This document shows positions 9,494 through 58,637 of a stretch of DNA of 64,000 nt, piece by piece. The stretch is from Eledone cirrhosa (taxonomy: Eukaryota). Location: assembly GCA_964016885.1 (NCBI GenBank), contig OZ024743.1:330770001-330834000 (forward strand), written 5' to 3'. The notes beneath the pieces are model-generated. The model saw only the letters and a list, made by a program, of their open reading frames with translations, did no database searches and had not been told where the DNA came from. A program made the position numbers and the translations under genes. How positions within the stretch are numbered: the first letter of the stretch is position 1; the number at the start of each line of letters is the position of its first letter.

Positions 9494-12400
9494 CTATAGT
9501 CTGATGTAGAGTGAAGGCCCATTCACACGGGCCATTCTCGCCACTTTCACCCATCTTTCATAGAAACGGCTGGGGTGCAGCACCTCTCTCTCCATCCTGA
9601 TCCTTCTTCCGAAATGATATCGGAAGAAACGGACCAGTTGTTGGCCAGAGAGAAAGGTGTCTGACCTCAGTCCTTTCAAACGCGTCCACCATACAACCTC
9701 TTTCGCCATGGCTATTACGCACAGAAACACCGCCTCTCCTTCGTTTTTGAAGAGGGAAGGCGGCTTGATCGTTACAATAGACTCGGTGGTCAACCGGATC
9801 GGTCCCACCCTTGACAGCAGTTGTTCGACATAGCCCCACAGATCGGCAATGCCCGAGCAGTGTACCAATGCGTGTGCAACGGTTTCCTCGTCGCACACGC
9901 ATCTGGGACAGACCTTTTTCGATGGGTCCCTACCCGGGCGCCCGTGTCTGTAGAGCCTTTCTCGAACGGGCAGAGCCCTTCTGTAGCATTGCCAGGCCAG
10001 GGACCTCTGGAAGTTATCCATGGGTCCCGGGCTGAATGTCCAACCGAACAGGTTGGCCAGTTCGTCTTCCTCCATGCCTAGGGCTTCTCCGAGGGCGTCG
10101 TCACACCTGCTAACCACCAGCCCTCTATAGAATGACGAGGTGGATTCTCCACTGACAGCCGGGTCCGCCTGCCAGAGAGCCGTGAGCGCCTGGGCACACT
10201 CGGTGTGCCAGGCGCCCAGTTTTCTCGGTCTTTGCTTGACCCAGGATTGCAGCTCGGTGAGTGAGACGAGTCTGGGAAAGGCTCGCCTCACAAACGGGGC
10301 CCACACCGGTTGACCGGAGAGGAATACCTGAAGGTGCCGTAGCCTTAATGCGTGTTTACGTATAATCAGCCACGGCATCCCCAGCCCTCCTTTCGAAGGG
10401 TGTTGACAGCAGATGGATTTCCTCACCATAGGAGCCCGCTTCTTCCAAAGGAATTGGAAGAGTGCGCGCTCCATTTTGGCGAGCGTTTCCCTTGGGCAAG
10501 GCACCACGGTCAGGCGGTAGTAGATGACGGACGCTATATAAGTGTTCGCCACCTCCGCCCGACCTTTCAGGGACAGTTTGCACTCGGCCCACTTCTGGGT
10601 CAGTGCAAACACCCTGCTCGTCACCTCACCCCAGTTCTTCTCCACCTGGAGGTCTGGTCCGAACCAGACCCCGAGCAATTTCACCGGGCCCTCCGTCCAG
10701 CGCCCGACGACGCCATCGGAGGGCATCGATCTGCCCCTCCACGTGCCGAGTTGCAGACCGATCGACTTGTCCCGGTTCAGCTTAGCCCCTGTAAACTTTT
10801 CGTACTCCTCCAGTAAGGTGCCGATCGCCCCGATTTCCGAGGCCGTCGACACCATTACTGTTACGTCATCGGCGTAGGCTGACACCGCTTTCCGCAATCC
10901 CGGTTCCAACGGGATGCCCTGCAACAACTCCAACTTCCGCAGCAGTGGCTCTAGAGTCACTACATACAGAAGGGAGGAGAGAGGGCACCCCTGTCGGATG
11001 GACCGCGCGATTTCGAACGGCTCCGAGAGGTAGCCGTTCACCTTGACCCTAGAGCAGATGCGGCTGCTGTGCATGGCATTGATCCAGCCCCTGAAAACGG
11101 GTCCGAAGCCTGCCGCCGCTAGCACCGCATCCAGGTAACCATGGTCGACCCTATCGAGTGCCTTAGATTGATCCAAGTTGATCAGGGCCCCACCAAAGCC
11201 GGGTTCGTTCCCAACCCTCTCTATGATGTATCGCATGAGGTGGAGGTTATCGTGGATGGACCTGGACGGGATAGCACATGTCTGCGCATCTCCCACCAGG
11301 TTGCCCACGACAAGCGCCAACCTCTTTGCTAGCACCTTGGCCAAAATCTGTAACTCTGTATTTAGCAGAGTTATGGGCCTGAAATTATTTATATCGTCCC
11401 CCTTGTTCTCGTCCTTCCTCACTAGCGTGACTACGCCCTTGGTCACAGCACAGGGAATTCTCCCGTTCTGTCGCCAGTTGCAGTAGACCGCCTCGAGGAG
11501 TTCGGGGAACAAGTCCGGCATAGCTAGATATAGTTCGTATGGAAGACCATCGAGACCCGGGGATTTGCGTTTGCCGCATTGGCTTAGCACGTCCTCTATC
11601 TCAGCGGCTGAAATCGGCTCCTCGCAGGACTTCGCCTCCCTGTCCGAGAGACGCGACAGGCCGTCGAGGTATGGACCGAAGTCCACGTCCCCAACCGGCC
11701 TCCCGCCCCTTCCGAACAATTCGGCAAAGTGCTTTTGAAAAGCCTCGCACATCTGCTTAGGTTCAAGGATCACCCGTCCATCCTGGTCTCGCAAAGACCG
11801 GATAGTGGATCTGCTCCCTCTTTTGGCTTCTGTCACGCGGGCCCAGCTAACAGCTTTGGTCCCCTCGTTTCCCAGAGCACGTATTTTGCTTCGGACGATG
11901 CAGCCTTCGTGTTTCGCGTCGAAGAACTGGCCCAGGGCCGTTCTCGACGCTAGCACTCTGGCCACGTCGCCGCTTCTAATTGCCTCTTCTACACTATCTA
12001 CCAACTCCCTTTCCTTCATATTTCTATTGGAGGCTAACTCCTTACTAAATTCTATAGAGACTACTCTAATCTCTCTTTTGAGAGATCCCCACCACCTGCT
12101 GTTGACGATGGCGCCCGTCAACCGCTCCTTAACTAAAGTGCTAATCCGGTTCCTGTAAGCCTTACTTGCCGGTAAGGACAAGTTGAGCTTCCAGTAACCG
12201 GGTCCCTGTCTATGAGTTCTGTCAAGGTTGACCATGCAGGTCACTAATTTGTGGTCTGAATAGCCAACCATGCGCATTTTTGGACAACTTAAAAAGTCCT
12301 TATCCTTAATTCTAACTAAGAACCTATCTAGGTACGACCTAGATGTTCCGCTACGATTTGCCCAAGTCCAGGTTGGCGCAGTCGGAAAATCTAGTCGATA

Positions 12401-12931
12401 TCTATCGGCCAGGTCAAATCGACCGATTAACCCTTTGAGGCTATTACACCCCTCTCTATCGGGACAGGCCCCTACGTAGTCCCAGCGTGCATCTAGGATA
12501 CCATTCCAGTCCCCCACTAATAGCAAGGAGCGGGACGTCCCTAGAAAAGTCTCCAGAGGATGGAAGAAGTCCGGCCGCATTGACCCGAAAGGGCCGTAGG
12601 CGGCTACCAACCTAAACGCTCCGCCTTTACCACTGCCAAGGTCCAGAACCACTAGTCGACCCTCCGGGTCCAAATGTACCATCTGTGTTGCGAGACCCAG
12701 ATGTTTTTGCAGCAGAACGACAACTCCACCCCCACCTCCGGGCTGACAGAGAGATGCGTGCATCTCAAAGTCATCAAAGGTGGGGGCCAACTGTCGCACG
12801 TTGCTGATCCGGGCCTCGCAAATAACCATCACATCTATACGTTGTGACCTGAGGTCATTTAGAAGCATTGCTTGCTTCCAAGTTGAGATCAGGCCACGCG
12901 CATTTAAACAGCCTACTCTTAGCATAGCCAT
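9494..12931 (-). CDS. Tx1 ORF2: APE endonuclease, reverse transcriptase, C-terminal zinc finger
   Basis: LNARGL, GDWN and SDHKLV (APE); SPGLDG, FRPITLLN, QGCPLS and YADD (RT); CPRC..ETVAHALVHC. The frame is uninterrupted, the likely ATG is at 12931 and the ORF is open from 12955. Confidence 0.93.
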   Translation of the reverse strand: MAMLRVGCLNARGLISTWKQAMLLNDLRSQRIDVMVICEARISNVRQLAPTFDDFEMHASLCQPGGGGGVVVLLQKHLGLATQMVHLDPEGRLVVLDLGSGKGGAFRLVAAYGPFGSMRPDFFHPLETFLGTSRSLLLVGDWNGILDARWDYVGACPDREGCNSLKGLIGRFDLADRYRLDFPTAPTWTWANRSGTSRSYLDRFLVRIKDKDFLSCPKMRMVGYSDHKLVTCMVNLDRTHRQGPGYWKLNLSLPASKAYRNRISTLVKERLTGAIVNSRWWGSLKREIRVVSIEFSKELASNRNMKERELVDSVEEAIRSGDVARVLASRTALGQFFDAKHEGCIVRSKIRALGNEGTKAVSWARVTEAKRGSRSTIRSLRDQDGRVILEPKQMCEAFQKHFAELFGRGGRPVGDVDFGPYLDGLSRLSDREAKSCEEPISAAEIEDVLSQCGKRKSPGLDGLPYELYLAMPDLFPELLEAVYCNWRQNGRIPCAVTKGVVTLVRKDENKGDDINNFRPITLLNTELQILAKVLAKRLALVVGNLVGDAQTCAIPSRSIHDNLHLMRYIIERVGNEPGFGGALINLDQSKALDRVDHGYLDAVLAAAGFGPVFRGWINAMHSSRICSRVKVNGYLSEPFEIARSIRQGCPLSSLLYVVTLEPLLRKLELLQGIPLEPGLRKAVSAYADDVTVMVSTASEIGAIGTLLEEYEKFTGAKLNRDKSIGLQLGTWRGRSMPSDGVVGRWTEGPVKLLGVWFGPDLQVEKNWGEVTSRVFALTQKWAECKLSLKGRAEVANTYIASVIYYRLTVVPCPRETLAKMERALFQFLWKKRAPMVRKSICCQHPSKGGLGMPWLIIRKHALRLRHLQVFLSGQPVWAPFVRRAFPRLVSLTELQSWVKQRPRKLGAWHTECAQALTALWQADPAVSGESTSSFYRGLVVSRCDDALGEALGMEEDELANLFGWTFSPGPMDNFQRSLAWQCYRRALPVRERLYRHGRPGRDPSKKVCPRCVCDEETVAHALVHCSGIADLWGYVEQLLSRVGPIRLTTESIVTIKPPSLFKNEGEAVFLCVIAMAKEVVWWTRLKGLRSDTFLSGQQLVRFFRYHFGRRIRMEREVLHPSRFYERWVKVARMARVNGPSLYIRL

Positions 12932-13492
12932 GTTGGTGGTGAAGAGAAAAGGCACTTACCTCTCTGCGTCCCGGGTATCGGGCTGCACAATTTCCATTAG
13001 GGTGGGGGATGGGTTGTTGGGTGGGGTGGTGGTTTGTGGAAGTGTAGGGGCATCAGTGTGTTGTGTGGTTGGGGAGCTTGGAGTTGTGTGGGTGTTTGGG
13101 GAGGGGGTGGGATAGTTTTTTAGGAGGACGCGGTTAATGGGCCCGACGCAGGGGGGGACCCACGTCCTCTTTAAAATTGTTTTTTTAAAGTTTTATAGGT
13201 GTCCTGTGGGGCCTTAATCATTTTGAGGTGGGGGGAAATCCCCTGCCTGGGTGAAGTTAGGACCTTGTGTTTTTATTAAATTGTTGTTGTACACAATGTT
13301 TAACAGTTTTTTGTTTCTTGTGTTTATGTATGTGTATGCATGTTTTTGTTTTTGAGTGGTGTTTTTTGTTTGCTGTTGTTGTGAGCTCTTTTGTGTTGGT
13401 GTCAGTGTTATGTTTTGGGGAGGGGTTGTTTTCATTTGTGTGTCTGAGGTGTGTTTTCTTTTTTTTCTTTTGATTGTGTGGAAGTGCTCCTC

Positions 13493-14746
13493 CTAGTCTG
13501 ACGACGAACTAGGGTCATCTTCCGCGTTGGAGGGGAGGGGTATATTTTCGGGTTGTGTTTGCGGTACGGGTGTTTTGGAAATTGTTTTTGTTTTTTGAGT
13601 GGAGGGGATGGGTTGGACATTGTTTTGTTTTGGTTTGAGCTGTGGTGGTTGTTTTTGTAGTGGTAGTTGTGGTGATTGTGTTGGTTGTGCAGTTGTTGGT
13701 GGTGTATGCAGGATTGGGGTTTTCTTATTAAGTTGGGGACAGACAGCCCTCAGGTGACCTCTTGTTCCGCAGAGGTAACACGAGGGTCGTCTACCCTCAA
13801 CGGTAATGTTGATGAAGGTTAGATCATCCAGTATGACGCGTTCAGGGATCTGGGCGATCCTTTCGGGCCTCATTTGAACTAAAAGTTCGAGGCTCGTTCC
13901 ACTGAACGCGTCACCCGATGCCTTTCCCATGGACACCAGCATGTCATCCTCCAGGTCCAGAAAACCTGTCAAAACCCACCATATGTCCATAATCGGCAGG
14001 ATGGTGTGGATTTTTATTTTTTGTGTTCTTCTACCCATGTACGTAGGGTAGAAGGTGTATGCGGTGGATGTGATTGGTTTGATGGACAGTTTCACTGCTG
14101 TGTCCCTGTCCTTCGTGAGAATGGATAGACTCCCGTAGAGTCTATCCTTCTGAATGAAGGTGATGTCCTTCATGACGTCTTTTAAAACCAGCTCTATCTC
14201 ACTCTGTGATGGTTGAGCTGGTTTTTTACTTTTGTTCGAGATTGTCCTAAACATGACCGTGTTTAGGAGTCTCTGGCTTTTTAGTTCCGGGGGGGAATGG
14301 ATTGTGAATGAACCATTTTCTCCGTACACTATATATTTTTTCGCATCTGCCAGTAGCTCCTTCGCTTTGGTTATATCTACTGGCAGATAGTCGAGGGTTT
14401 TCCTTGTCGTCTCGGCGAAGGAGAAATTTTGTTTGTTTGTGTTGTTGTTGTCGTTGGTGGTGTTGTTGTTATCATTGTTGTTGTTGTCACCGTTATTGGT
14501 CTTGTTGTTGTTGTTATTGTTATTGGTGTTGTTTTCGTCCGTCGCATTGTTGTTGTTGTTGCTGCTGCTGCTGGTTCTTTGGGTTGTTGCCATGGCAACG
14601 TCAAGTTGTCGGTTAACAGGTGGAGAGAATTCTTCCTCTGGCTGACCTTTCTTCTTGACCTCTGCTACTGTGACAGTGGCAGGGGGAAGCTGTAAGTTTA
14701 TCTTCCCCTTTCCTCCTTCGAATTTTGGTGAAGAAGCTTCGGCCAT
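13493..14746 (-). CDS. Tx1 ORF1 (gag-like, CCHC zinc knuckle), probably prematurely terminated
   Basis: Poly-Asn tract and CYLCGTRGHLRAVC knuckle. The frame continues past the TAG at 13493-13495. Confidence 0.85.
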   Translation of the reverse strand: MAEASSPKFEGGKGKINLQLPPATVTVAEVKKKGQPEEEFSPPVNRQLDVAMATTQRTSSSSNNNNNATDENNTNNNNNNNKTNNGDNNNNDNNNTTNDNNNTNKQNFSFAETTRKTLDYLPVDITKAKELLADAKKYIVYGENGSFTIHSPPELKSQRLLNTVMFRTISNKSKKPAQPSQSEIELVLKDVMKDITFIQKDRLYGSLSILTKDRDTAVKLSIKPITSTAYTFYPTYMGRRTQKIKIHTILPIMDIWWVLTGFLDLEDDMLVSMGKASGDAFSGTSLELLVQMRPERIAQIPERVILDDLTFINITVEGRRPSCYLCGTRGHLRAVCPQLNKKTPILHTPPTTAQPTQSPQLPLQKQPPQLKPKQNNVQPIPSTQKTKTISKTPVPQTQPENIPLPSNAEDDPSSSSD

Positions 14747-17224: not shown

Positions 17225-17267
<43 letters not shown>

Positions 17268-17312
17268 TAAACAAATAATGAATAAACAATTCCTTATATT
17301 AAACAAAAAAAG

Positions 17313-17468
17313 TTCATTATTTAACGATCGTTTCTAGGATATATATGTGTGTTAGAGTTGGCATGCATATTCAACAGATCTATGTACAAAATTATACAAA
17401 ATTATACAAACTATCAAGATTAAATATACATACCAACACATATATACGCCGTCTTCAGAAATAATGAA
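17313..17468 (-). ncRNA. Hammerhead ribozyme with ~115-nt stem II (left arm copy)
   Basis: Reverse complement of 29996-30151. Confidence 0.72.
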
Positions 17469-18105
17469 ATATATTTATTGATAATAACAACAATTCAAAC
17501 TTTCAGGTCCGTTTGGGAACGAAATTGGCCAATGAAAATACAAAAGGTTTAATGCAGTTCGGTGTGTGTATATACATGTAACAACCCTTACATATATTTT
17601 ACAAAAATGTATTCACAACCTGTATACGCATACAAAAAGGATGGATGCAAATACAACATTTCAAGGTTAATGTCTCTGTAAGTCTATAATGCACAGATAA
17701 GATGCGTACAGATACATAAATATGAAATAAGTGTATACACATATTTTCATACTAACACATATCCGTACAATCACACATACACGCGCGTATATGCATAAAC
17801 ATACACATAAACTACGAACATACAAACACACACACACCACCACACACATATATATATGTGGATATAAAATCCTAAGCACATGGATATTAATTCACTCACA
17901 TAAACACTGGCACACACATTTAGATAAAGATACAGAAATTAGGTGGGAGGGGGGGGGAGAGGTCAGTATTCAACGGTTAGGGCTGACTGCTTAATATAGA
18001 TGTATCTATAAACTAAGGAAATAAAAAATAATAAATAATAAATAAACATTAAAGAGGAAAGAAAAGAAAAAGAAAAAAGAAAAAAGAAAAAAGAAATATA
18101 TCAAG

Positions 18106-18187
<82 letters not shown>

Positions 18188-18363
18188 CACATACACACAC
18201 ACACACACATATATATACATACACATATACAAACACATACATACATATACAGACATCCACACTTAGAACATACATACACACACATATATAAACATATACA
18301 TATACACACATACATACATATACACACATACATATAAATACACATATATATATACATATATAT

Positions 18364-18402
<39 letters not shown>

Positions 18403-18686
18403 CACTCATACATACACATATAATCACACATACTATATAGACACACATATATATACACACATATACACACATATACATACACTTACATACATATATATAT
18501 ACAGATATACACATACATACCTATATATACACACAAATACATACAGACATATATACATACATACAGACAAATACTTACGCATCTATATATCGGTATATAC
18601 ATACAAACACCACAACACTCTCACACAACTCAGACATACAAAGAAAAAGGTATATACCCATACACATATACATATACAAATAGAGA

Positions 18687-18766
<80 letters not shown>

Positions 18767-18986
18767 CATATATATATACACATATACACACATACACACA
18801 TACACATACATACACATACATACATGTACACACACATAGATATATATACACACATACACCCATACACATACATATATAGTCATACACACACATACACCTA
18901 CACGAACATACACATACACATATACAAAGATATATATACACACACACACACATACACACACACACATATATATAAAAAAAATAAAG

Positions 18987-19035
<49 letters not shown>

Positions 19036-19672
19036 TTACACATACATACACACATACATAGACATATATGTACATACATACATATACATAGATGCATACA
19101 CACACATACATACATATATATATACACACATAGACATATACATACATACATACACAACATACATACACACATATATACTCATACATAGAATTAGATATAT
19201 AATCATACATACATACGCACTTACATATACTGATATATACAAATACAAACGCATCCATATATGCGTATATACATAGAAACACCACTACACCCTCACCCAA
19301 CTCAGACATACAAAGAAAAAGGCATATACATATACATATATACACGCATTAATAGAGATATATATACACATATATATATATACATATATATATATACACA
19401 CACATACGCTCATATACATATACCCACACACACATACAACCATAAATACACATACAAACACCCACATATATAAATATATACATACACATATATATATATA
19501 TACACACACATAATAAAAAACAGACATGCACATATATATATATATTTTTTTTTTTTTTTATACATATATATACACATATATATACATATACACACCCTCA
19601 CATATACACACATACACATAAGTTATATTATAATAATAAATAATATATATATACACATACACATATACATAC

Positions 19673-19722
<50 letters not shown>

Positions 19723-20018
19723 GAATATAGACATATATACACACACAGATATATATACATATATATATACACACATACATATACACACACACACATATAC
19801 ACATTCACATATATATGTGTGTGCACACACTCATATATATACATACACACATATACACATAAACACATATATGTGTATACATGCACACACACACATATAT
19901 CCACATAGATACGAAGATAGACATATAAATAGAGAGACATACATATATATACACACACACATATACATATATACATACACACACATATATATATATATAT
20001 ATACACATATATATATAC

Positions 20019-20056
<38 letters not shown>

Positions 20057-21374
20057 ATACACAGACATACACATACACATATATATACACATGCATATAT
20101 ACACATATACACATACATACACACACATATATATACACACACAATCTTACATTCTTATTTGCATGCGCATATATGTATTTTTATATTCAGATATAAATAC
20201 CCAAATATATATACACCTACCTACATATATATTCATACATACACGCTTACAAACAGATGATAATAGTAAGGGGGAAAGGGGGGGGTTGGAGAAGGGGATT
20301 ATAGTAAATATATGTTTCAAGAAACAGAATATTATCCGTATCTAGATCCAATGTATGTTTTTACATAGTATCAGTGTTAGGAAATACAATAAACAAGAAA
20401 TAAGGCAAAATTTATGCATTACAAAATAAATAAGTATACCATTAATTATATGTTAACTAAACTAAAGATAGTTAACATATTGATTTCTAAGGTGTAAATT
20501 AGTTAGGTTTATAATATTTGAAGCAGAGTTTTGAAGTTAAATAGTAGTAGAGTATTAATTATAGTATAATTAAATTAAAGTTAAAAACGTTATGGTATCA
20601 ATATTAGGAAATGAATTTAGTAATAGGGAAAAAACAAATAAAGTATTACATCGGTAGTAGAATATAAATTATAGGTTAATTAAATTAAAAATTATATATT
20701 TATTTCTATAGTATATGTTAATTAGGTATATAATAAATAAAACAGATATTGTATTTTATCAATAGCAGAATATAATATTATGCAAATAGAAATCAAAATT
20801 AATACATATACATATACACATACATACACATATATATATACATATATATACATATATATATACATATATACACATATACATACGCACACACATACACATA
20901 CACATATACATATACATATTTTTTCAAAAATTGCAAAGAATATATTAACTAGGTATAAATCCAAAACACATCCCATTCTAAGATTACATGACATTCTGCA
21001 ATTCGTCTGTATAAGGATATTAATTTTAAGCCAATTAAATTAAATTTTTAGGTTGATTAAAATTAAAACCAAATTATAAATATATTTCTAAAATGTATAT
21101 TAATTAGGTCTATAATACTAAAAATTATTTCTCTGTCATTGGATACACGATATTTTGTTATATTTTATCTGTAAAAGAATTATAATAAAAGGTTTAAATA
21201 AATTAAAATTAATCTATAAATTAAATTACTAAGTATATATTAGTAATATTTAAAGGTTTTTCACAATTTATGATTACATAATATTTTATATTCTCATCTG
21301 TAATAGAATTTTAATTAAATTAAATTTATAGGTTAACTAACATTTAAATTAAATTAATTTCTAAAATAATGTTA

Positions 21375-22370
21375 TTAATTAGGTTTATAATATTTAAATG
21401 TTTTTTTTAGTTTATGATTACACGATATAATTAATTCCTGTCGTTTATTTAATAGGTTATCCTTAGATTTCATTATTTCAAATAGTTCTTGGGAACATAA
21501 TCTACATTCATTTCTATTATTTTGATAAGGGGTGGCTCTTTTGAGCACACTCCAGGTCAAATCATATTCTATATTCTTATTTTTATAACTATTGATTTTT
21601 TCTGCTAGAGATGTTGTATTAGCCAGTGCGGCATTTTTAAAGCTATGCTTGTGGGTATTAAACCTTGTCTTAAAATTGTTAGAGGTAGCTCCTATATATG
21701 AGCAAATAGAATCTTTAGTTTTAACATTACATTTATAGACTATGTTGTTAACAAGACAATTCCCTTTTAATGGGCAGTTTGCTTTGTTTCTACAGTTACA
21801 ACCTTTCGTTAATTCAGTATTTGAGGAGATATTATGGTTAATTTGATGTACTGGTGGTATACTTATGGTTTTCTTACATTTATATGCATTATAGGCACTT
21901 ATATTTTGTTTTATGTTATTTGTTGTAGAGTATGAGAATTTAACTGTAGACCTATTTAAGATTTGATGGTATTTGTGGTTTGGCGGGAAGTTTTTCTCTA
22001 GGATATAAAAAAATTTTTTAGCAATAGTATCCTTAATTTGTAAATTAAATGGAGCATTATACCAAGTAACACGTCTATTACGGTTTCTATGTTGTTTATT
22101 ATTTTTATTATTTTTATAGGTTGTATCGTGATTTTTACTAGGAGGATTAATGTTAATGATCTCACCACAACCATTTTTAGTTATATTTGTAGATTTAGGT
22201 GTTTTATCCTTTTTATTAGGAGTTTTATTATTAATATTTATTAGAGTTGTATGATAAGTAGTTTTTTGAGAGTTACTATACTTTATATTAGAAGATTTGG
22301 TGTTTTGGGGTATAGTGTGGGTGGCATTTAGGTGTGTACTTTTCATTTGGTGTTTGTTGGTAATATTACC
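21375..22370 (-). pseudogene. 5'-truncated Naiad-type PLE ORF: low-complexity linker + GIY-YIG endonuclease
   Basis: WYNAPF..KNFPPNHKYHQILNRSTVKFSYS, CNCR..CPLKGNCL..IVY..YIGATSNNFKTRFNTH, CRLC..E, LLNKRQEL..CNH. No RT core is present, and the listed ATG comes from the junction. Confidence 0.85.
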
Positions 22371-22372
22371 AA

Positions 22373-22936
22373 TTCTCATACTCTACAACAAATAACATAA
22401 AACAAAATATAAGTGCCTATAATGCATATAAATGTAAGAAAACCATAAGTATACCACCAGTACATCAAATTAACCATAATATCTCCTCAAATACTGAATT
22501 AACGAAAGGTTGTAACTGTAGAAACAAAGCAAACTGCCCATTAAAAGGGAATTGTCTTGTTAACAACATAGTCTATAAATGTAATGTTAAAACTAAAGAT
22601 TCTATTTGCTCATATATAGGAGCTACCTCTAACAATTTTAAGACAAGGTTTAATACCCACAAGCATAGCTTTAAAAATGCCGCACTGGCTAATACAACAT
22701 CTCTAGCAGAAAAAATCAATAGTTATAAAAATAAGAATATAGAATATGATTTGACCTGGAGTGTGCTCAAAAGAGCCACCCCTTATCAAAATAATAGAAA
22801 TGAATGTAGATTATGTTCCCAAGAACTATTTGAAATAATGAAATCTAAGGATAACCTATTAAATAAACGACAGGAATTAATTATATCGTGTAATCATAAA
22901 CTAAAAAAAACATTTAAATATTATAAACCTAATTAA
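22373..22936 (+). pseudogene. Inverted copy of the GIY-YIG-coding 3' part
   Basis: Reverse complement of 21375-21938, reading FSYSTTNN...YKPN*. Confidence 0.85.
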
Positions 22937-24258
22937 TAACATTATTTTAGAAATTAATTTAATTTAAATGTTAGTTAACCTATAAATTTAATTTAATTAA
23001 AATTCTATTACAGATGAGAATATAAAATATTATGTAATCATAAATTGTGAAAAACCTTTAAATATTACTAATATATACTTAGTAATTTAATTTATAGATT
23101 AATTTTAATTTATTTAAACCTTTTATTATAATTCTTTTACAGATAAAATATAACAAAATATCGTGTATCCAATGACAGAGAAATAATTTTTAGTATTATA
23201 GACCTAATTAATATACATTTTAGAAATATATTTATAATTTGGTTTTAATTTTAATCAACCTAAAAATTTAATTTAATTGGCTTAAAATTAATATCCTTAT
23301 ACAGACGAATTGCAGAATGTCATGTAATCTTAGAATGGGATGTGTTTTGGATTTATACCTAGTTAATATATTCTTTGCAATTTTTGAAAAAATATGTATA
23401 TGTATATGTGTATGTGTATGTGTGTGCGTATGTATATGTGTATATATGTATATATATATGTATATATATGTATATATATATGTGTATGTATGTGTATATG
23501 TATATGTATTAATTTTGATTTCTATTTGCATAATATTATATTCTGCTATTGATAAAATACAATATCTGTTTTATTTATTATATACCTAATTAACATATAC
23601 TATAGAAATAAATATATAATTTTTAATTTAATTAACCTATAATTTATATTCTACTACCGATGTAATACTTTATTTGTTTTTTCCCTATTACTAAATTCAT
23701 TTCCTAATATTGATACCATAACGTTTTTAACTTTAATTTAATTATACTATAATTAATACTCTACTACTATTTAACTTCAAAACTCTGCTTCAAATATTAT
23801 AAACCTAACTAATTTACACCTTAGAAATCAATATGTTAACTATCTTTAGTTTAGTTAACATATAATTAATGGTATACTTATTTATTTTGTAATGCATAAA
23901 TTTTGCCTTATTTCTTGTTTATTGTATTTCCTAACACTGATACTATGTAAAAACATACATTGGATCTAGATACGGATAATATTCTATGTTTCTTGAAACA
24001 TATATTTACTATAATCCCCTTCTCCAACCCCCCCCCCCTTTCCCCCTTACTATTATCATCTGTTTGTAAGCGTGTATGTATGAATATATATGTAGGTAGG
24101 TGTATATATATTTGGGTATTTATATCTGAATATAAAAATACATATATGCGCATGCAAATAAGAATGTAAGATTGTGTGTGTATATATATGTGTGTATGTA
24201 TGTGTATATGTGTATATATGCATGTGTATATATATGTGTATGTGTATGTCTGTGTATG

Positions 24259-24293
<35 letters not shown>

Positions 24294-24589
24294 GTATATA
24301 TATATGTGTATATACATATATATATATGTGTGTGTATGTATATATGTATATGTGTGTGTGTATATATATGTATGTCTCTCTATTTATATGTCTATCTTCG
24401 TATCTATGTGGATATATGTGTGTGTGTGCATGTATACACATATATGTGTTTATGTGTATATGTGTGTATGTATATATATGAGTGTCTGCACACACATATA
24501 TATGTGAATGTGTATATGTGTGTGTGTGTATATGTATGTGTGTATATATATATGTATATATATCTGTGTGTGTATATATGTCTATATTC

Positions 24590-24635
<46 letters not shown>

Positions 24636-25275
24636 GTATGTATATGTGTATGTGTATATATATATTATTTATTATTATAATATAACTTATGTGTATGTGT
24701 GTATATGTGAGGGTGTGTATATGTATATATATGTGTATATATATGTATAAAAACAAAAAAAAAAAATATATATATATATGTGCATGTCTGTTTTTTATTA
24801 TGTGTGTGTATATATATATATATGTGTATGTATATATTTATATATGTGGGTGTTTGTATGTGTATTTATGGTTGTATGTGTGTGTGGGTATATGTATATG
24901 AGCGTATGTGTGTGTATATATATATATGTATATATATATATGTGTATATATATCTCTATTAATGCGTGTATATATGTATATGTATATGCCTTTTTCTTTG
25001 TATGTCTGAGTTGGGTGAGGGTGTAGTGGTGTTTCTATGTATATACGCATATATGGATGCGTTTGTATTTGTATATATGAGTATATGTAAGTGCGTATGT
25101 ATGTATGATTATATATCTAATTCTATGTATGAGTATATATGTGTGTATGTATGTTGTGTATGTATGTATGTATATGTCTATGTGTGTATATATATATGTA
25201 TGTATGTGTGTGTATGCATCTATGTATATGTATGTATGTACATATATGTCTATGTATGTGTGTATGTATGTGTAA

Positions 25276-25316
<41 letters not shown>

Positions 25317-25319
<3 letters not shown>

Positions 25320-28300
25320 CTTTGAATAACTTTGAAATGTTTTGGCCAGTATTGGCCCAGGCCATGTCTAACTTAATAGCACCACCTGGCGAAGTCTTTC
25401 AATTCAGGATTTGGGCACCATGGCCCATTCGAGAAGAGAATTACTGTTTGCGGAGACATATCCGGGTGTGGGTGGTTTGTCCGGGATTACTTGGAGGAAT
25501 TTGTCCAAAGACTTCTTGAATTTTGTGTGGTCAGTTTCTGTTTTGACGTGTCCTGGTGTGATGTTGAAGAGAGCAGGGCCGATTGAGGTGAAATAATTGT
25601 GCCGTATTGTTGTTATGAGTTGCGATTTAGATTTTTGAATGGGACGGATAGCACGGGGCCCAAGCCTTGGGTGTATCTTGAAGGCGATGCCAACATCATT
25701 TGGGCAGTGATGATGGAACATTTTCCACATCATGCAGATAATATAACGCTCACGGCGACGTTGGAGTGAGTAAAGTTTCAGGTTTTCCAATCGACCCCAG
25801 TAGTCAAGGTCTGACATGCCATCTATCTTTTTCGTGATTGCCCTTTGAGGAGCTTCAAGTTTCATGATACTTTGTTTCGTGTGGGGAGACCACAGTGGAC
25901 AACAGTATTCAAGGTGTGGTCGGGCGAAAGTAGAGAAGAGAAGGATAATGGTGCGGGAATCTCTCGACTGGAAGGTTCTGAGGATCCAGGAACACATTCT
26001 GCGGGCCATGTCAACTTTGCTGCTTATATGCGTGGTCCAGCTTATGTTGCTGTCCACGGTTACTCCCAAGTCTCTGATGTTGTTAGATGCCACGAGAGTT
26101 TCCCCGGAGGGAAGGGAGTACGGGAGTTTCAGAGCATCCTCTTTTCCAAAGTGGATCAGTTCGAATTTGTCTTCGTTCAGTAACATGTTGTTCTTTTCTG
26201 CCCATTGGGTAACAGCCAGTAGGTCTGACTGAAGGCTTATCCGGTCATCCACGCCATTGATGACCTTTTGGAGCTTGGAATCATCAGCGAAAATTTTAAT
26301 GTTGCTGTGTTTGATGATGTCAGTGATGTCATTAATATAGATGATAAAGAGAAGTGGGCCCAACACAGTGCCTTGTGGCACCCCACTACTGACTTTGGCT
26401 GGGCTTGATTTGACTCCCTCAACTACAACATGTTGGGTTCTGTTTGACAGGAAGCTCTTGATCCACCGCAGCAGCTTTCCAGTGACACCAATATTGGACA
26501 GCTTTCTCAGTAGAATGTTATGATCAACCCTGTCAAAGGCCTTGCTGAAATCAAGGTAGATAACATCAGTGTTGGAACCCTCTCCCAAGGCTCTCAAAAT
26601 GTCATCAAAGTGATGCAGTAGTTGCGTCAGGCAATCCCTTCCATTACGGAATCCATGCTGGTTGGAGTTCAGCATATTGTTACTCTCAAGGAAGTGGGTC
26701 ATTCGCGATCTCACCACTCGCTCAAATACCTTAATGATATGAGAGGTGAGTGAGATTGGACGGTAATTCACGGCAAGGGATTTGTTTCCCTTTTTGAAAA
26801 CTGGGACAACAGACTGGGATAGAAGGTTTTCTGGCACATATCCAGCATCCAGTGAGTTCCGCCACAGATTGGCAAGAGGAGAAGCAAGTTGGTGTTGACA
26901 CGCCTTCAAGACACAAGCAGGGAACCTATCGGGACCTACTGCTGAATTATGCTTGATTTCCTTTATTGCCGCCAAGACATCAGGGGCGCCAAACGTTATG
27001 TCCGATAAGGTGTAATGGGGAGTAACATCGCCGATACAGCCCAGATCGGCCATATCAGGATTGCTGAAAACAGAGCAGTATTGTTTCTGCAGTATCTCAC
27101 CCATGGTTTTAGCATTGTCTTGAAGAGTGCCATTTTCATCAATTAGAGGGCCAACAGTAGAGCCAGTGATTTTGTGTTTTTTTGCAAATGAAAAGAACAC
27201 TTTGGGATTGAGTTTGATCTTCTCAATGGCCCAGGCCTCTTCAGCTCTTCTCTGATTGTTGATGAGGGACATTATGTTGTTTTGGAGGTTATGTTTTTTA
27301 ATCTCTAGTGATGAAATGGCAGTCAAGTTGATGTGTTGCTGCTGACAGTATTTCAGATTGTTGATTTTTTTGTTCGTTCTCTTAATTTTTCTGATGAGCG
27401 TTTTTCTATTTCTAGGGATTCTGCTCTTAGATTTGTTTATAGTTCTTAATGGGGTGTGTTTAGCACATATGTTTGTAACAGTGTCCACAAATGTCTGCCA
27501 GGACTTTTTGATGTTAGTGGGTGTATGAGTGTGCGTGAAGGACCAGTCGACATGTGCAAGATCATGACTGATCGCTTCCCAGTTTGCATTGTGGAAATCC
27601 ATAGCGTCAAACGGATGGACAGGAGAGATGACATTGGGTTTGTATATTGGACGGTGGAATCTCAGATCACAGAGAACCATGTCATGATCAGAGAGTAGAG
27701 TTTTCTCCACTGCAATATTGTGGATATTGTCAGTGTGATTGCTGAAAATTAAGTCTAGGACGTTTTTGTGGCACCTCGTTGGTTCGAGCACTAGTTGGGA
27801 TAGGAAGAAATCATTCATGAAGTCAAGAAGCGATTCCACAGCTTCCCTGTCAGAGGTTGAGGCAGAAGAACCTGGTGGCAGGGTGTTTGTGGACCAGTCA
27901 ACTCCGGGGAGGTTGAAGTCCCCCATCATTAAGATGTTGTCAGGGTGACACTCTTGGATGAAACACTTTATGCTGTTGAGGCATTCCTTGAAGCATGGTA
28001 CAGGCGTTTGGGGTGGCCTATAGAGCCCAACTACTAATAGGTTGTTGGTTTGACTGAATACAGTGACTGCCTCACAGTATCCATTAGTGAATATGTTCAT
28101 AGCCTCTGTTGAGAAAGAATTATGGACATAAATGGCAGTTCCGCCCTTTCTTCTGCCAGCGCGATCAGCACGGATGGCTTTGAAATTTTTCACTTTCACC
28201 TCGGCTTCCAAGTGGAGGTTACTGAGATGGGTTTCAGTGAGGACGAAGAAAGGGATGTGGTTTGGATGGACATCAATCCAGTCCTCCAGGAATTTGATCT

Positions 28301-28481
28301 TCCATTTTTGAGTATTGGTGGAAGGGCTGATGCCTTGGGCGTTAAGTAAAAATGTAGAGGCGAGAGTGGATGGTTTTAATTGTTTTGGTGTGTTGTTAAT
28401 TTGTTTGTTTGTTAATGGCAGCAATGGGAGTTTGTGCAGTGGGGTGATAGTGGAGGGTGGTGCTGGGTGATAGCTTGAATG
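25317..28481 (-). mobile_element. CR1-clade LINE, 5'-truncated just upstream of ORF2
   Basis: Short 3' UTR ending in a (ttcaaagtta)x2 tail next to (TA)n. It is present only in the right palindrome arm. Confidence 0.88.
25404..28424 (-). CDS. CR1 ORF2: APE endonuclease + reverse transcriptase, intact frame
   Basis: LNAQGI, LTETHL, YRPP, GDFN, SDHD; NYRPISLTS, YLDFSKAFD, SGVPQGTVLGP, FADD, YSLQRRRER. The true start codon is uncertain. Confidence 0.92.
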   Translation of the reverse strand: MLPLTNKQINNTPKQLKPSTLASTFLLNAQGISPSTNTQKWKIKFLEDWIDVHPNHIPFFVLTETHLSNLHLEAEVKVKNFKAIRADRAGRRKGGTAIYVHNSFSTEAMNIFTNGYCEAVTVFSQTNNLLVVGLYRPPQTPVPCFKECLNSIKCFIQECHPDNILMMGDFNLPGVDWSTNTLPPGSSASTSDREAVESLLDFMNDFFLSQLVLEPTRCHKNVLDLIFSNHTDNIHNIAVEKTLLSDHDMVLCDLRFHRPIYKPNVISPVHPFDAMDFHNANWEAISHDLAHVDWSFTHTHTPTNIKKSWQTFVDTVTNICAKHTPLRTINKSKSRIPRNRKTLIRKIKRTNKKINNLKYCQQQHINLTAISSLEIKKHNLQNNIMSLINNQRRAEEAWAIEKIKLNPKVFFSFAKKHKITGSTVGPLIDENGTLQDNAKTMGEILQKQYCSVFSNPDMADLGCIGDVTPHYTLSDITFGAPDVLAAIKEIKHNSAVGPDRFPACVLKACQHQLASPLANLWRNSLDAGYVPENLLSQSVVPVFKKGNKSLAVNYRPISLTSHIIKVFERVVRSRMTHFLESNNMLNSNQHGFRNGRDCLTQLLHHFDDILRALGEGSNTDVIYLDFSKAFDRVDHNILLRKLSNIGVTGKLLRWIKSFLSNRTQHVVVEGVKSSPAKVSSGVPQGTVLGPLLFIIYINDITDIIKHSNIKIFADDSKLQKVINGVDDRISLQSDLLAVTQWAEKNNMLLNEDKFELIHFGKEDALKLPYSLPSGETLVASNNIRDLGVTVDSNISWTTHISSKVDMARRMCSWILRTFQSRDSRTIILLFSTFARPHLEYCCPLWSPHTKQSIMKLEAPQRAITKKIDGMSDLDYWGRLENLKLYSLQRRRERYIICMMWKMFHHHCPNDVGIAFKIHPRLGPRAIRPIQKSKSQLITTIRHNYFTSIGPALFNITPGHVKTETDHTKFKKSLDKFLQVIPDKPPTPGYVSANSNSLLEWAMVPKS

Positions 28482-28698
28482 TTTTTTATATATATGTGTG
28501 TGTGTGTATGTGTGTGTGTGTGTATGTATATATATCTTTGTATATGTGTATGTGTATGTTCGTGTAGGTGTATGTGTGTGTATGACTATATATGTATGTG
28601 TATGGGTGTATGTGTGTATATATATCTATGTGTGTGTACATGTATGTATGTGTATGTATGTGTATGTGTGTATGTGTGTATATGTGTATATATATATG

Positions 28699-28784
<86 letters not shown>

Positions 28785-29068
28785 TCTCTATTTGTATATG
28801 TATATGTGTATGGGTATATACCTTTTTCTTTGTATGTCTGAGTTGTGTGAGAGTGTTGTGGTGTTTGTATGTATATACCGATATATAGATGCGTAAGTAT
28901 TTGTCTGTATGTATGTATATATGTCTGTATGTATTTGTGTGTATATATAGGTATGTATGTGTATATCTGTATATATATATGTATGTAAGTGTATGTATAT
29001 GTGTGTATATGTGTGTATATATATGTGTGTCTATATAGTATGTGTGATTATATGTGTATGTATGAGTG

Positions 29069-29127
<59 letters not shown>

Positions 29128-29283
29128 GTGTATTTATATGTATGTGTGTATATGTATGTATGTGTGTATATGTATATGTTTATATATGTGTGTGTATGTA
29201 TGTTCTAAGTGTGGATGTCTGTATATGTATGTATGTGTTTGTATATGTGTATGTATATATATGTGTGTGTGTGTGTGTATGTG

Positions 29284-29353
<70 letters not shown>

Positions 29354-29995
29354 CTTGATATATTTCTTTTTTCTTTTTTCTTTTTTCTTTTTCTTTTCTT
29401 TCCTCTTTAATGTTTATTTATTATTTATTATTTTTTATTTCCTTAGTTTATAGATACATCTATATTAAGCAGTCAGCCCTAACCGTTGAATACTGACCTC
29501 TCCCCCCCCCCCCCCTCCCACCTAATTTCTGTATCTTTATCTAAATGTGTGTGCCAGTGTTTATGTGAGTGAATTAATATCCATGTGCTTAGGATTTTAT
29601 ATCCACATATATATATGTGTGTGGTGGTGTGTGTGTGTTTGTATGTTCGTAGTTTATGTGTATGTTTATGCATATACGCGCGTGTATGTGTGATTGTACG
29701 GATATGTGTTAGTATGAAAATATGTGTATACACTTATTTCATATTTATGTATCTGTACGCATCTTATCTGTGCATTATAGACTTACAGAGACATTAACCT
29801 TGAAATTTTGTATTTGCATCCATCCTTTTTGTATGCGTATACAGGTTGTGAATACATTTTTGTAAAATATATGTAAGGGTTGTTACATGTATATACACAC
29901 ACCGAACTGCATTAAACCTTTTGTATTTTCATTGGTCAATTTCGTTCCCAAACGGACCTGAAAGTTTGAATTGTTGTTATTATCAATAAATATAT

Positions 29996-30151
29996 TTCAT
30001 TATTTCTGAAGACGGCGTATATATGTGTTGGTATGTATATTTAATCTTGATAGTTTGTATAATTTTGTATAATTTTGTACATAGATCTGTTGAATATGCA
30101 TGCCAACTCTAACACACATATATATCCTAGAAACGATCGTTAAATAATGAA
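29996..30151 (+). ncRNA. Hammerhead ribozyme with ~115-nt stem II (right arm copy)
   Basis: ttcattattt-CTGAAGA-[long hairpin]-GAAA-CGATCG-TT-aaataatgaa: 10-bp stem I, palindromic stem III and a GUU triplet. Confidence 0.75.
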
Positions 30152-30424
30152 CTTTTTTTGTTTAATATAAGGAATTGTTTATTCATTATTTGTTTAATAT
30201 TTTATCTTGACTCTGTATACCGTTTATCTTTCACCGAAAGTGATTTTTCATTACATCTCTTCTTTGCATGATATCCGGAATACATTGAGTTCTTCATACG
30301 GATTGGACACTACCGTAAACTCTTGGTAGATTTATCTACATATATATATATATATATATATAACATATATACATATATACATACATACACACATACACAC
30401 ACATATAATATATGTATCCAGGAA

Positions 30425-31066: not shown

Positions 31067-32290
31067 CACGGTGCGGACGATATTTGTCTAGGAACAAGTA
31101 ACGCAGTAGTTTTATTTTTTAAGAGTTATTTATCAAACTTAGGTCAGTTTGTCTTCATGACTTGTTCTTTCGATCTCACTCGATAAACCCGCCATTGGCT
31201 TTGATGACGGCCTCAAGGCTACAGGCCTTCGTCACTGTCCCCCCGAATTAGGCCCCTAAAGGCACTCGTGATCCTGGCCTTCAGATAGTATTTCGTATTG
31301 CAGCTAGATCTGTTGGTGTCTCGTTCCACTGCGCCCCACATAAAGAAGTCGAGGGGGTTGCAGTCAGGCGAGCTGGGAGGCCAGATGTCATGTGAAGTGT
31401 GGTCGACGAAGTTCTCTGACAGCCAGGCTTGGGTCTTTCGGTTGGTATGGCAGGGCGCTGAGACTGGCTGCCACACGTACGGCCTACCTGCAGCTACCTG
31501 GGCGATCCAGGGCTTTACTACCTCGCTCAAAACGCGGATGTAGCCATCGGTGTTCAGCTTGAGGCCCTCAGGGAAGAAGTGAGGTGGAATGACGTCACCA
31601 TGACTGCTGACGACACCTAAGAACAATGTTGACGCTGGAAACTTTGTCTGCATGACTCTGGGCACACCTGTTGTTCTGGGAGTTGATCTTCTGGTCTTGG
31701 CAGAAGTTTTTCTCGTCGGAGAAAAACCACAGCATGTCTGGCTCCAGTGGGTGTTTCAGTCGCTTTTCTTGCATCGCCTTTGACAGAAATTGTCCTTTCC
31801 TCATCTTGTATGAAACGTAGCAAATGTCTTCATGTACCACCAGCCTAATGAGCTTTTCATCCACGCCTTTCTCCCTTGCAATGGCACGCATCGACTTGCT
31901 TGGTTCATTGTTGATGATATCCTGAACTTCAGCAACGAACTCAGGCGTTCTGAAGGCGTCAGATCGTCGATCATGTGTTTTCCTCTCTGATGTTGCTTCG
32001 TAGTCGAATCCTGAATCTTCCAATTCCTTTCTGACCTTTCTCACCATTCTCCTGCTGACGCTGAGAACGTCTGAAATTTTCTTATTTGTCCTCCCGGCGC
32101 GGATTCCAAGAAGAACTCCGTGTCTCTTCCACAAATTTGGAGGTTAAAAATTATTCATAATCAATTATTCTGAAAATAAATAATGGAAATATAGTCCTGT
32201 TTTTATGAAGACAAGAGTGACAACGAAAGTAAAAAAAAATTGCATAAAATTAGCAGTTGAAAATTGCGAACAAATATCGTCCACACCCTG
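31067..32290 (-). mobile_element. Tc1/mariner DD37D (maT) transposon, defective
   Basis: TIRs cacggtgcggacgatatttg / caaatatcgtccacaccctg with TA on both flanks. The transposase is split over two frames, with an HTH region, FSDEK and WPPSSPDCNPLDF. There are 37 residues between the mutated second Asp position and the last Asp. Confidence 0.9.
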
Positions 32291-33664: not shown

Positions 33665-36600
33665 ATCTCTATCTATACAGCCATAGTAACAGCCACAGTA
33701 ACTAAGACATGTGTCTATCTATACAGCCACAGTAACTAAGACATGTGTCTATCTATACAGCCACAGTATCTAAGACATGTGTCTGTCTATACAGCCACAG
33801 TAACTAAGATATGTCTATATCTATACAGCCACAGTAACTAAGACATGTCTCTATCTATACAGCCACAGTAACTAAGACATGTGTCTATCTATACAGCCAC
33901 AGTATCTAAGACATGTGTCTATCTATACAGCCACAGTATCTAAAACATGTGTCTATCTATACAGCCACAGTATCTACGACATGTGTCTGTCTATACAGCC
34001 ACAGTAACTAAGATATGTCTATATCTATACAGCCACAGTAACTAAGACATGTCTATATCTATACAGCCACAGTATCTAAGACATGTGTCTATCTATACAG
34101 CCACAGTATCTAAAACATGTGTCTATCTATACAGCCACAGTATCTAAGACATGTGTCTATCTACACAGCCACAGTAACTAAGATATGTCTATATCTATAC
34201 AGCCACAGTAACTAAGACATGTCTCTATCTATACAACCACAGTAACTAAGAATTGTGTCTATCTATACAGCCACAGTAACTAAGACATGTGTCTATCCAT
34301 ACAGCCACAGTAACTAAGACATGTGTCTATCTATACAGCCACAGTAACTAAGACATATGTCTATCTATACAGCCAGAGTAACTAAGACATGTGTCTATCT
34401 ATACAGCAACAGTATCTAAGACATGTGTCTATCTATACAGCCACAGTAACTAAGACATGTGTCTATCTATACAGCCACAGTAACTAAGACATATGTCTAT
34501 CTATACAGCCAGAGTAACTAAGACATGTGTCTATCTATACAGCAACAGTATCTAAGACATGTGTCTATCTATACAGCCACAGTATCTAAGACATGTGTCT
34601 ATCTATACAGCCACAGTAACTAAGACATGTGTCTATCTATACAGCCACAGTAACTAAGACATATGTCTATCTATACAGCCAGAGTAACTAAGACATGTGT
34701 CTATCTATACAGCAACAGTATCTAAGACATGTGTCTATCTATACAGCCACAGTAACTAAGACATGTCTCTATCTATACAGCCACAGTATCTAAGAGATAT
34801 GTCTATCTATACAGCCACAGTAACTAAGACATGTCTCTATCTATACAGCCACAGTATCTAAGACATGTGTCTATCGATACAGCCACAGTAACTAAGACAT
34901 GTCTCTATCTATACAGCCACAGTAAACTAAGACATGTCTCTATCTATACAGCCACAGTATCTAAGACATATGTCTATCTATACAGCCACAGTAACTAAGA
35001 CATGTCTCTATCTATACAGCCACAGTAACTAAAACATGTGTCTATCTATACAGGCACAGTAACTAAGATATGTCTCTATCTATACAACCACAGTAACTAA
35101 GACATGTGTCTATCTATAGAGCCACAGTATCTAAGACATGTCTCTATCTATACAGCTACAGTAACTAAGACATGTCTCTATCTATACAGACACAGAAACT
35201 AAGACATGTCCTATCTATGCAGCCACAGTAACTAAGACATCTCCTATCTATTCAGCCACAGTAAATAAGACATGTTTCTATCTATACAGCCACAGTAACT
35301 AAGACATGTTCTATCTATACAGCCACAGTATCTAAGACATGTCTCTATCTATACAGCCAGAGTAACTAAGAAATGTGTCTATCTATACATCCACAGTAAC
35401 TAAGACATGTCTCTATCTATACAGACACGGTAACTAAGACACAAGTCTATCTATACAGCCACAGTAACTAAGACATGTCTCTATCTATACAGCCACAGTA
35501 TCTAAGACATGTCTCTATCTATACAGCCACAGTAACTAAGACATTTCTCTATCTATACAGGCACAGTAACTAAGACATGTCTCTATCTATACAGCCATAG
35601 TAACTAAGACATGTCCTATCTATACAGCCACAGTATCTAAGACATGTGTATATCTATACATGCAGAGTAACTAAGACATGTGTCTATCTATACAGCCACA
35701 GTAACTAAGACATGTCTCTATCTATACAGCCACAGTAACTAAGACATGTCTCTATCTATAGAGCCACAGTAACTAAGACATGTCTCTATCCATAAAGCCA
35801 CAGTAACTAAGACATGTCTCTATCTATACAGCCACAGTAACTAAGACATGTGTCTATCTATACAGCCACAGTATCTAAGAGATATGTCTATCTATATAGC
35901 CAGAGTAACTAAGACATGTGTCTATCTATACAGCCACAGTATCTAAGACATGTGTCTATCTATGCAGCCACAGTAAACTAAGACATGTCTCTATCTATAC
36001 AGCCACAGTAACTAAAACACGTCTATATCTATACAGCCACAGTAACTAAGACATCTCTCTATCGATACAGCTACAGTAACTAAGACATGTGTCTATCTAT
36101 ACAGCCACAGTATCTAAGACATGTCTCTATCTATACAGCCACAGTAACTAAGACATGTCCTATCTATGCAGCCACAGTAACTAAGACATGTCCTATCTAT
36201 ACAGCCACAGTAGCTAAGACATGTCTCTATATATACAGCCACAGTAACTGAGACATGTTCTATCTATACAGCCACAGTATCTAAGACATATCTCTATCTA
36301 TACAGCCACAGTAACTAAAAAATGTGTCTATCTATATATGCAGAATAACTAAGACATGTGTCTATCTATACAGCCACAGTAACTAAGACATATCTCTATC
36401 TATACAGCCACAGTAACTAAGACATGTCTCTATCTATATAGTCACAGTAACTAAGACATGTGTCTATCTATACAGCCACAGTAACTAAGACATGTCTCTA
36501 TCTATACAGCCAGAGTAACTAAGACATGTCTCTATCTATAGAGCCACAGTAACTAAGACATGTCTCTATCTATACAGCCACAGTAACTAAGACATGTCTC

Positions 36601-56596: not shown

Positions 56597-58637
<2,041 letters not shown>

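Follow-up and report, generated by a model that had tools for sequence, protein, structure and literature searches.

How a retroelement can leave two copies of itself, head to head, in a single insertion is the question raised by a 64,000-nt stretch of the Eledone cirrhosa genome (contig OZ024743.1, forward-strand positions 330,770,001 to 330,834,000), hereafter the window. It contains a palindrome of about 13 kb formed by 5'-truncated copies of one young element, whose sequence motifs place it in the Hydra clade of Penelope-like elements (PLEs). Inverted arms, at 17259-21940 on the minus strand and 22371-30205 on the plus strand (coordinates are positions in the window; L and G numbers denote fetched loci of the same genome), are separated by a 430-nt spacer. 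In each, the 3' end of a GIY-YIG domain is followed by some 4.1 kb of tail that includes a type I hammerhead, and (TA)n adjoins both outer ends. A preliminary description of the locus had recognized all of this content, the inversion and the spacer, but pictured two continuous arms of about 4.7 kb; the right arm is split by a long interspersed nuclear element (LINE) of 3.16 kb. It had also reported scattered differences between the arms, and a global alignment over about 4.68 kb agrees, with 6 substitutions and about a dozen short indels, mainly within repeat tracts, and an innermost 1,615 nt that is 100% complementary. The outer ends, however, are not equivalent: the right arm runs a further 134 nt before reaching (TA)n, and this extra sequence is the beginning of the element's own 5' untranslated region (UTR). 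The same two ends recur throughout the genome, and the two arms of an insertion almost always take one each.

Pairing of the two arm ends

We designate the shorter end site A (17259 and 30205 in the window) and the end 134 nt beyond it site B. Nearly all arm ends in both fetched sets correspond to A or B followed by (TA)n. In a first set, ranked by similarity to the window element, every two-armed insertion with both ends in view was A+B (35 of 35; the A end of L045 lies 9 nt short of A through a small deletion); the rest comprised five two-armed insertions with one end out of view or lost, nine single arms, one gap and three stretches with no junction in view. A position-ordered set, which combined the first 40 B ends that lacked an exact A partner with A ends that were unpaired and with possible exceptions to the rule, yielded 34 A+B, one A+A (L143) and no B+B, five of the 34 having been picked because their coordinates already showed A+B, and L143 as a candidate exception. 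With four of four in a set of multi-unit insertions, A+B accounts for 73 of 74 two-armed insertions, or 68 of 69 without the five pre-picked ones (p ~2e-19 if each end were chosen independently at 50:50). When 100 consecutive B ends were inspected by coordinates, the only B/B candidate turned out to be two separate A+B insertions. The suggestion that the family routinely makes multi-kb palindromes is borne out on contig C1, where 36 of the first 47 exact B ends are two-armed and 11 single (seven of the 36 were called by coordinates, and three of those seven were fetched).

Genome-wide, exact junctions number 1,440 at A and 3,911 at B. The equal counts that might be expected are thus not seen with exact patterns, a discrepancy partly traced to variants at A: 23 of the 40 seemingly unpaired B ends had a variant A partner, and A-site variation among subfamilies accounts for much of the gap in this sample.

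A second PLE family, unrelated to the first, forms a head-to-head pair in the same window (135-2860, with inverted arms at 135-927 and 1181-1973). It encodes a reverse transcriptase (RT) and a GIY-YIG domain with the core CxxC that Hydra elements lack, and a genome search gave about 1,033 first-look candidates. Its two ends are 40 nt apart, with 323 and 878 exact junctions. By coordinates and exact patterns only, 21 of 35 short (A) ends pair tail-out with a long (B) end, while A/A pairs, B/B pairs and tail-in controls all number 0. Its 3' UTR carries CA-rich tandem repeats and, near 2635-2670, a hammerhead-like motif with an altered core.

Origin of the two arms

Compared within unique blocks, the two arms of an insertion show 61 differences in 33,037 sites (0.18%; 32 pairs, with one pair giving no calls), against a summed median difference of 1.33% between arms and other loci. 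Arm pairs share 251 non-majority alleles, 41 of which are absent from every other fetched locus. The earlier proposal that both arms stem from one insertion event is upheld by this contrast. An assembly artefact, or a local fold-back duplication of flanking host DNA, might be invoked, as palindromes and microsatellites are hard to assemble and the locus is known from the assembly only; it is barely credible for a tail that is dispersed with its open reading frame (ORF) over many contigs, for arms that differ by substitutions, by the 134-nt end and by a LINE present in one of them, and for junctions that differ between loci.

Identical arms would also result if a cDNA turned back and copied itself, or if antisense RNA primed its own copying, as has been proposed (PMC3846280). 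Such fold-back would yield A+A insertions of the kind seen in L143, and short inverted or repeated filler does occur at a few junctions (L040/41, L054, L090, L104). It predicts, however, A+A or B+B ends, or a short arm contained in the long one. One folding cDNA cannot give the shorter arm 134 extra nucleotides, and yet the shorter arm carries them in 21 of 35 insertions; in ten cases (L042, L073, L096, L097, L112, L120, L123, L134, L148 and L149) the A and B arms have little or no sequence in common, which excludes fold-back for those. We consider it very improbable as the general route, largely refuted as it is by non-overlapping A+B pairs, but it may apply to rare cases such as L143. Two further features bear on how the arms were made. 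Head-to-head junctions show 0-3 nt of overlap or short fillers, different at each locus, and B arms stop within the 135-nt A-B interval in 12 of 52 cases, against 1 of 47 A arms stopping in their first 135 nt (hand count; Fisher p=0.002), an excess expected if a B-primed enzyme meets an A-primed one on the same RNA.

The reading that we favour, and hold to be likely, is that the two arms arise in one event in which both (TA)n break ends prime, at A and at B, on what is probably a single RNA; each step of it is reconstructed from genomic products. The GIY-YIG domain would cut both strands of a (TA)n tract, after which one target end would prime at A and the other at B, both sites ending in a TA-like tip. 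PLE reverse transcriptases are not known to have RNase H. Without this activity, the B-primed copy could stall behind the A-primed one, leaving short non-overlapping arms, or it could displace the A-primed copy and recopy the same sequence, creating a palindrome. The two cDNAs would stop independently and be joined head to head through 0-3 nt of microhomology or a few filler bases. A cDNA that reached the RNA 5' end, whose likely position is one base into hammerhead stem I, would either end there, giving mini-palindromes of about 550 bp, or continue by a jump to the 3' pseudo-long terminal repeat (pLTR) or along a multimeric or circular RNA, giving tandem units, up to three or four per arm. 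In the window copy, a LINE later inserted into the right arm.

Another PLE studied in vitro cuts and extends both strands and has two internal starts that bound its tail; its protein is predicted to form a dimer (PMC11167929). An asymmetric dimer would lend itself to priming from two ends on two RNAs of one locus, with one subunit engaged at A and the other at B. This arrangement accounts for the A+B rule, for alleles common to both arms and for complete duplication with no strand having to be displaced over 5-20 kb, and allows either A or B to be the longer arm; it demands, however, that asymmetry be supplied from an additional source, gives no reason for so many B arms to stop ahead of A, and sits poorly with the absence of mixed-subfamily arm pairs (0 of 32 compared) at a time when several subfamilies are young. 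We regard it as unlikely. Still less probable, in our judgement, is that a double-stranded palindromic intermediate forms first, its arms being cut at A and B by the endonuclease and then joined to (TA)n, along the lines of the 'EN-mediated resolution' (EN, endonuclease) view of the tail set out in PMC8557442. Ends that are fixed to the base, the position of both A and B in AT-rich motifs, and the need of the Drosophila virilis endonuclease for the tail in recognition (as cited in PMC11167929) would all suit such a route, but arm pairs without common sequence and stalls in the A-B interval are left unexplained by it, and the in vitro work finds both ends at sites where RT starts (PMC11167929).

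A number of observations weigh against priming of both arms on one RNA. L143 is a clear A+A palindrome, and single-armed insertions make up about a quarter of the total (11 of the 47 consecutive B ends; 9 of the 49 insertions classified in the first set, four A and five B). The genome-wide scarcity of exact A relative to exact B junctions is not explained in full, and A arms shorter than about 22 nt are undetectable in a TA flank. The longer arm is A in 21 insertions and B in 14 (p=0.31); as neither arm is reliably longer, no order of firing emerges. In the PLE studied in vitro, the start site is not strand-dependent (PMC11167929). Few arms stop near the predicted hammerhead cleavage site, three of them 11 nt 3' of it. 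Finally, gene conversion between arms may, to some extent, be compatible with the sequences, in which one RNA and two RNAs of the same locus are inseparable.

More tentatively, and with rather more doubt than confidence, we suggest that for PLEs in general integration might require both target ends to prime, at two sites of one RNA, and that a short first product, as in retroviruses, might run off the capped 5' end and be able to jump to the 3' pLTR. If so, one scheme would cover, across clades, the pLTRs, the tandem and inverted copies, the tail on one side and the short non-autonomous forms, and the present genome, in which two clades have left thousands of young insertions and palindromes extend to 39 kb, would record it directly.

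In LINE-1 twin priming, both target ends prime on one RNA and produce head-to-head inverted pieces, the second primer annealing at variable internal sites and the pieces not overlapping; here, in contrast, both sites are fixed, with 134 nt between them, and one arm usually repeats the sequence of the other. Closer parallels are found in the Penelope/Poseidon group (D. virilis Penelope, Anolis PAc), for which partial tandems, an inverted 5'-truncated copy and a 'tail' at one end are described, along with two internal RT start sites and a start site within the pLTR (PMC11167929, PMC3846280). The same accounts give a tail of 30-40 nt with sites in the ORF, as against 134 nt and sites in the 5' UTR here, and call the tail optional or often one-sided, whereas A+B is almost obligatory in the present family. 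Inverted 5'-truncated copies, tails that are often at one end, hammerheads, (TA)n targeting and long spacers in one rotifer family are already in print (PMC8557442, PMC3846280, PMC4209133, PMC6431247, bioRxiv 10.64898/2026.07.22.740005), and the origin of PLE tandem and inverted structures has been named as an open question (PMC8557442, PMC11167929). A literature search, with most subscription papers, older Penelope work among them, outside its reach, found no statement of obligatory A+B pairing, of a Hydra element with a multi-kb microsatellite tail, or of run-off at helix I. A repeat annotation of Octopus vulgaris counts recently active Penelope families, and its main text does not mention Hydra (PMC13282606). 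Taken together, A+B pairing, arm pairs that do not overlap and the common stop point described below make the open question sharply testable and argue against fold-back, in a family that leaves near-perfect inverted repeats of 0.5 to 39 kb across a 3-Gb genome.

Stop points, hammerheads and multi-unit arms

In the position-ordered set, 32 of 99 arms (two more are ambiguous) stop within 13 nt at the start of hammerhead stem I. Exact head-to-head junctions at which both arms stop just 5' of the hammerhead number 653/641 genome-wide (control, 0), so that there are about 650 such mini-palindromes, each about 550 bp long. An untemplated G directly precedes the first A in 8 of the first 53 listed mini-junctions, with nine more ambiguous (hand count). 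The homologue of this hot spot in the window is position 29999, one base into stem I, in a context that resembles the initiator consensus. We think it reasonably probable, on sequence grounds, that the hot spot marks the 5' end of the RNA, that is, a capped transcription start; the start site of Penelope lies within the pLTR (PMC8557442). A protein roadblock is the alternative, whereas a hairpin barrier is not expected at this position because structure 3' of it would already have been unwound by the enzyme. A splice acceptor is disfavoured, no AG lying ahead of the hot spot; in D. virilis, an intron does terminate at the 5' end of helix I (PMC4209133). Reads and contigs matched to the terminal region were related sequence in other organisms' runs, none of them on a palindrome junction.

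When both strands were scanned for the combination of stem I, core and stem III across the window, type I hammerheads emerged at two places only, one per arm. In the right arm, stem I pairs 29998-30005 with 30142-30149, the core lies at 30006 and 30130, stem III is minimal and palindromic, and stem II forms a 116-nt rod-like structure (z=-6.65; none of 200 shuffles equally stable). Across the family, the 8-bp stem I is fully paired in 156 of 184 copies, stem III is palindromic and stem II measures 101-126 nt. Searching the window against Rfam at gathering thresholds gave no match, so that the hammerhead call rests on the motif scan, the fold and the Hydra table of PMC8557442; stem I did not form in a free fold of the region. 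Cleavage is a prediction. As in the tabulated Hydra hammerheads, an extra base follows CUGANGA and another precedes GAA, but stem II is far longer than the few base pairs listed there (PMC8557442). The B arms of L062, L078 and L095 all stop at one T run, 11 nt 3' of the predicted cleavage.

Other arms extend beyond one unit, as seen from 303 exact internal junctions; these need a multimeric, circular or re-entered template, and allele signs are mixed. The largest palindrome (G000:C2:36290961-36329724, L152-L157) spans 38.8 kb, is A+B and has three element units per arm, its six ORF copies lying 0-4 nt apart versus 35-94 nt between loci. In G2, the outer units of both arms share alleles and the inner units have a 385-nt insert, a pattern that suggests a template that was linear or was switched; the variants of G3 alternate from unit to unit, which suggests repeated copying; those of G1b and G4 are nearly all private. 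A single arm at L162-L164 (G000:C1:420375863-420399836) holds 3.5 tandem units whose repeat-length variants alternate between units 1/3 and 2/4, suggesting that a two-unit template was copied twice. Beside it lie fragments of a sister family that is 90% identical and shares its B end. The short forms recall non-LTR retrozymes, described as short hammerhead units derived from pLTRs, but are arranged head to head rather than in head-to-tail arrays (bioRxiv 10.64898/2026.07.22.740005).

The element, its tail and its neighbours

The element had been called Naiad-like, a label that we reject: Naiads are described as having an N-terminal endonuclease, DKA and CxC motifs, and no canonical hammerhead (PMC8557442), while the GIY-YIG of the present family is C-terminal, and DKT, a hammerhead and Hydra motifs are present. 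With Naiads it shares (TA)n targeting, inverted structures and high copy number (PMC8557442). Natural copies L035, L037, L043 and L045 retain an intact 813-aa ORF coding for RT plus a GIY-YIG at its C terminus, with RWR at 37, DKT at 115, YRDD at 346, CxCx5C at 673, the GIY-YIG motif at 692, CxxC at 771 and CxH at 799; DKG and DKA are absent, and the GIY-YIG core, as read from the sequence, is without the CxxC pair. Among 77 long homologues, RW[KR] occurs in 55 and DK[TS] in all. The single ORF, RW[KR], DKT and the CxCx5C linker match the Hydra clade, as do CxxC and CxH around E and N, the lack of CCHH and (TA)n targets (PMC8557442), the latter seen in the flanks of fetched copies; named Hydra reference proteins were compared by eye. 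Pfam gave no match on the truncated ORF piece of the window.

The unit is large. In L037 it measures 6,757 nt (a 287-nt 5' UTR, the ORF and a tail of about 4,030 nt), and units of multi-unit insertions range from 6.5 to 6.9 kb, whereas Hydra elements are said to be generally under 3 kb, a descriptive rather than diagnostic size: 27 supplementary families span 1.1-3.0 kb, and the Octopus family Hydra-1_Obim, from which the present one is distinct in a by-eye comparison, 2,507 bp (PMC8557442). The stretch of about 3.8 kb from stop codon to hammerhead likewise sets the 6.76-kb unit apart from the listed families. An insert of about 95 aa, rich in N, K and T, follows the thumb, where 119 aa stand against 21-35 aa in 43 of 47 homologues measured. 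Genome searches gave 1,496 first-look candidates with the 3' end and 1,682 with the ORF linker, and identity was 98-100% in the 40 that were scored. At the protein level, scoring of 7,999 candidates brought up 107 relatives with 32-48% identity.

The 4-kb tail is part of the mobile unit, as the preliminary description had supposed. Probes from nine arm blocks are collinear behind the ORF in the first set (60 stretches), as far as the length of each arm allows, and the tail is dispersed with the ORF over many contigs, not unique to this locus. Within single stretches, 54 of 59 spans from stop codon to A end measure 3.7-4.35 kb (a count that its anchor biases towards the nearest subfamily, and in which an arm may appear twice where stretches overlap); distant subfamilies have ORFs 97-98% identical, tail blocks 76-90% identical and tails of 3.3-4.4 kb. 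A tail filled with microsatellites, as first described, is an overstatement: period-2-rich windows cover 1,607 of 4,028 nt and dinucleotide repeats about 40-50%, of which TA/TG repeat makes up about 1.6-2 kb, the remainder being AT-rich unique or degenerate tandem sequence. The related idea that the family spreads microsatellites holds, at a modest scale, roughly estimated at a few Mb in the 3-Gb genome from about 1,700 long arms. A Hydra element can thus carry a 4-kb microsatellite-rich tail and move about 2 kb of TA/TG repeat per full arm. The tail also supplies new targets, since family copies (L040/41, L114) and a LINE have inserted in it, and repeat annotation would likely break such copies into simple repeats and fragments. 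Pen1_Av of Adineta vaga similarly has a spacer of 0.9-1.5 kb between ORF and 3' pLTR, but one that varies among copies, whereas here it is inherited with the family (PMC3846280). The AT-rich start of the tail (20400-21440) holds direct repeats in degenerate form, some of which match the final 50 nt of the ORF; they suggest growth by tandem duplication. In L035+L036 (G000:C2:29423000-29426700), one arm's tail has received a LINE of RTE-like type, whose 1,226-aa frame is open and which has zinc fingers at its C terminus.

The minus-strand LINE of the window's right arm, of the apurinic endonuclease-reverse transcriptase (APE-RT) type, has a 1073-aa frame with Pfam RVT_1 and Exo_endo_phos matches. 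It is young, a full-length copy in L134 being 99% identical, and its arrival in a TA tract of the tail postdates palindrome formation. About a quarter of the 13 kb is not palindromic because of it. No target duplication was seen at the insertion site, where about 11 nt of target were lost. The LINE has a short tandem 3' tip and adjoins (TA)n in the window, L044 and L098.

Table 1. Features of the palindrome, in window coordinates
Feature	Position	Strand	Basis
(TA)n target tract, left end	17229..17258	.	sequence
Left arm, 5'-truncated Hydra-clade PLE copy; short end = site A (17259); 430-nt spacer included	17259..22368	-	
3' tail of left arm, ~4.1 kb: AT-rich blocks, ~2 kb of TA/TG repeats, pLTR with hammerhead; order kept in other copies	17259..21374	-	
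Type I hammerhead, left arm; core start 17458, predicted cleavage 17323	17315..17466	-	
3' part of ORF: N/K/T-rich linker, CxCx5C, GIY-YIG, CxxC, CxH, stop	21375..22368	-	
Spacer = extra 5' reach of left arm over right arm	21941..22370	-	
Head-to-head junction, 2 untemplated nt	22368/22371		
Right arm, inner part; GIY-YIG 3' end up to 22936, then tail	22371..25318	+	
APE-RT LINE, single long ORF; later insertion in right-arm TA tract	25319..28478	-	
Right arm, outer tail as far as site A (30205)	28479..30205	+	
Type I hammerhead, right arm; predicted cleavage after 30141	29998..30149	+	
134 nt between sites A and B, where the 5' UTR begins; the right arm is therefore the B arm	30206..30339	+	
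(TA)n target tract, right end	30340..30360	.	sequence

Elsewhere in the window are further mobile elements, whose labels are in part tentative (Pfam was run on the two long frames only): an L1/Tx1-like element with two open frames (9494-14746), a decayed relative (40069-44040), a 1,141-aa RT element with zf-RVT (44875-48300) and its decayed relative (56580-58389), and a Tc1/mariner-like remnant (31219-32143). A tandem array of about 5.6 kb, with a period near 34 nt, occupies 33689-39345.

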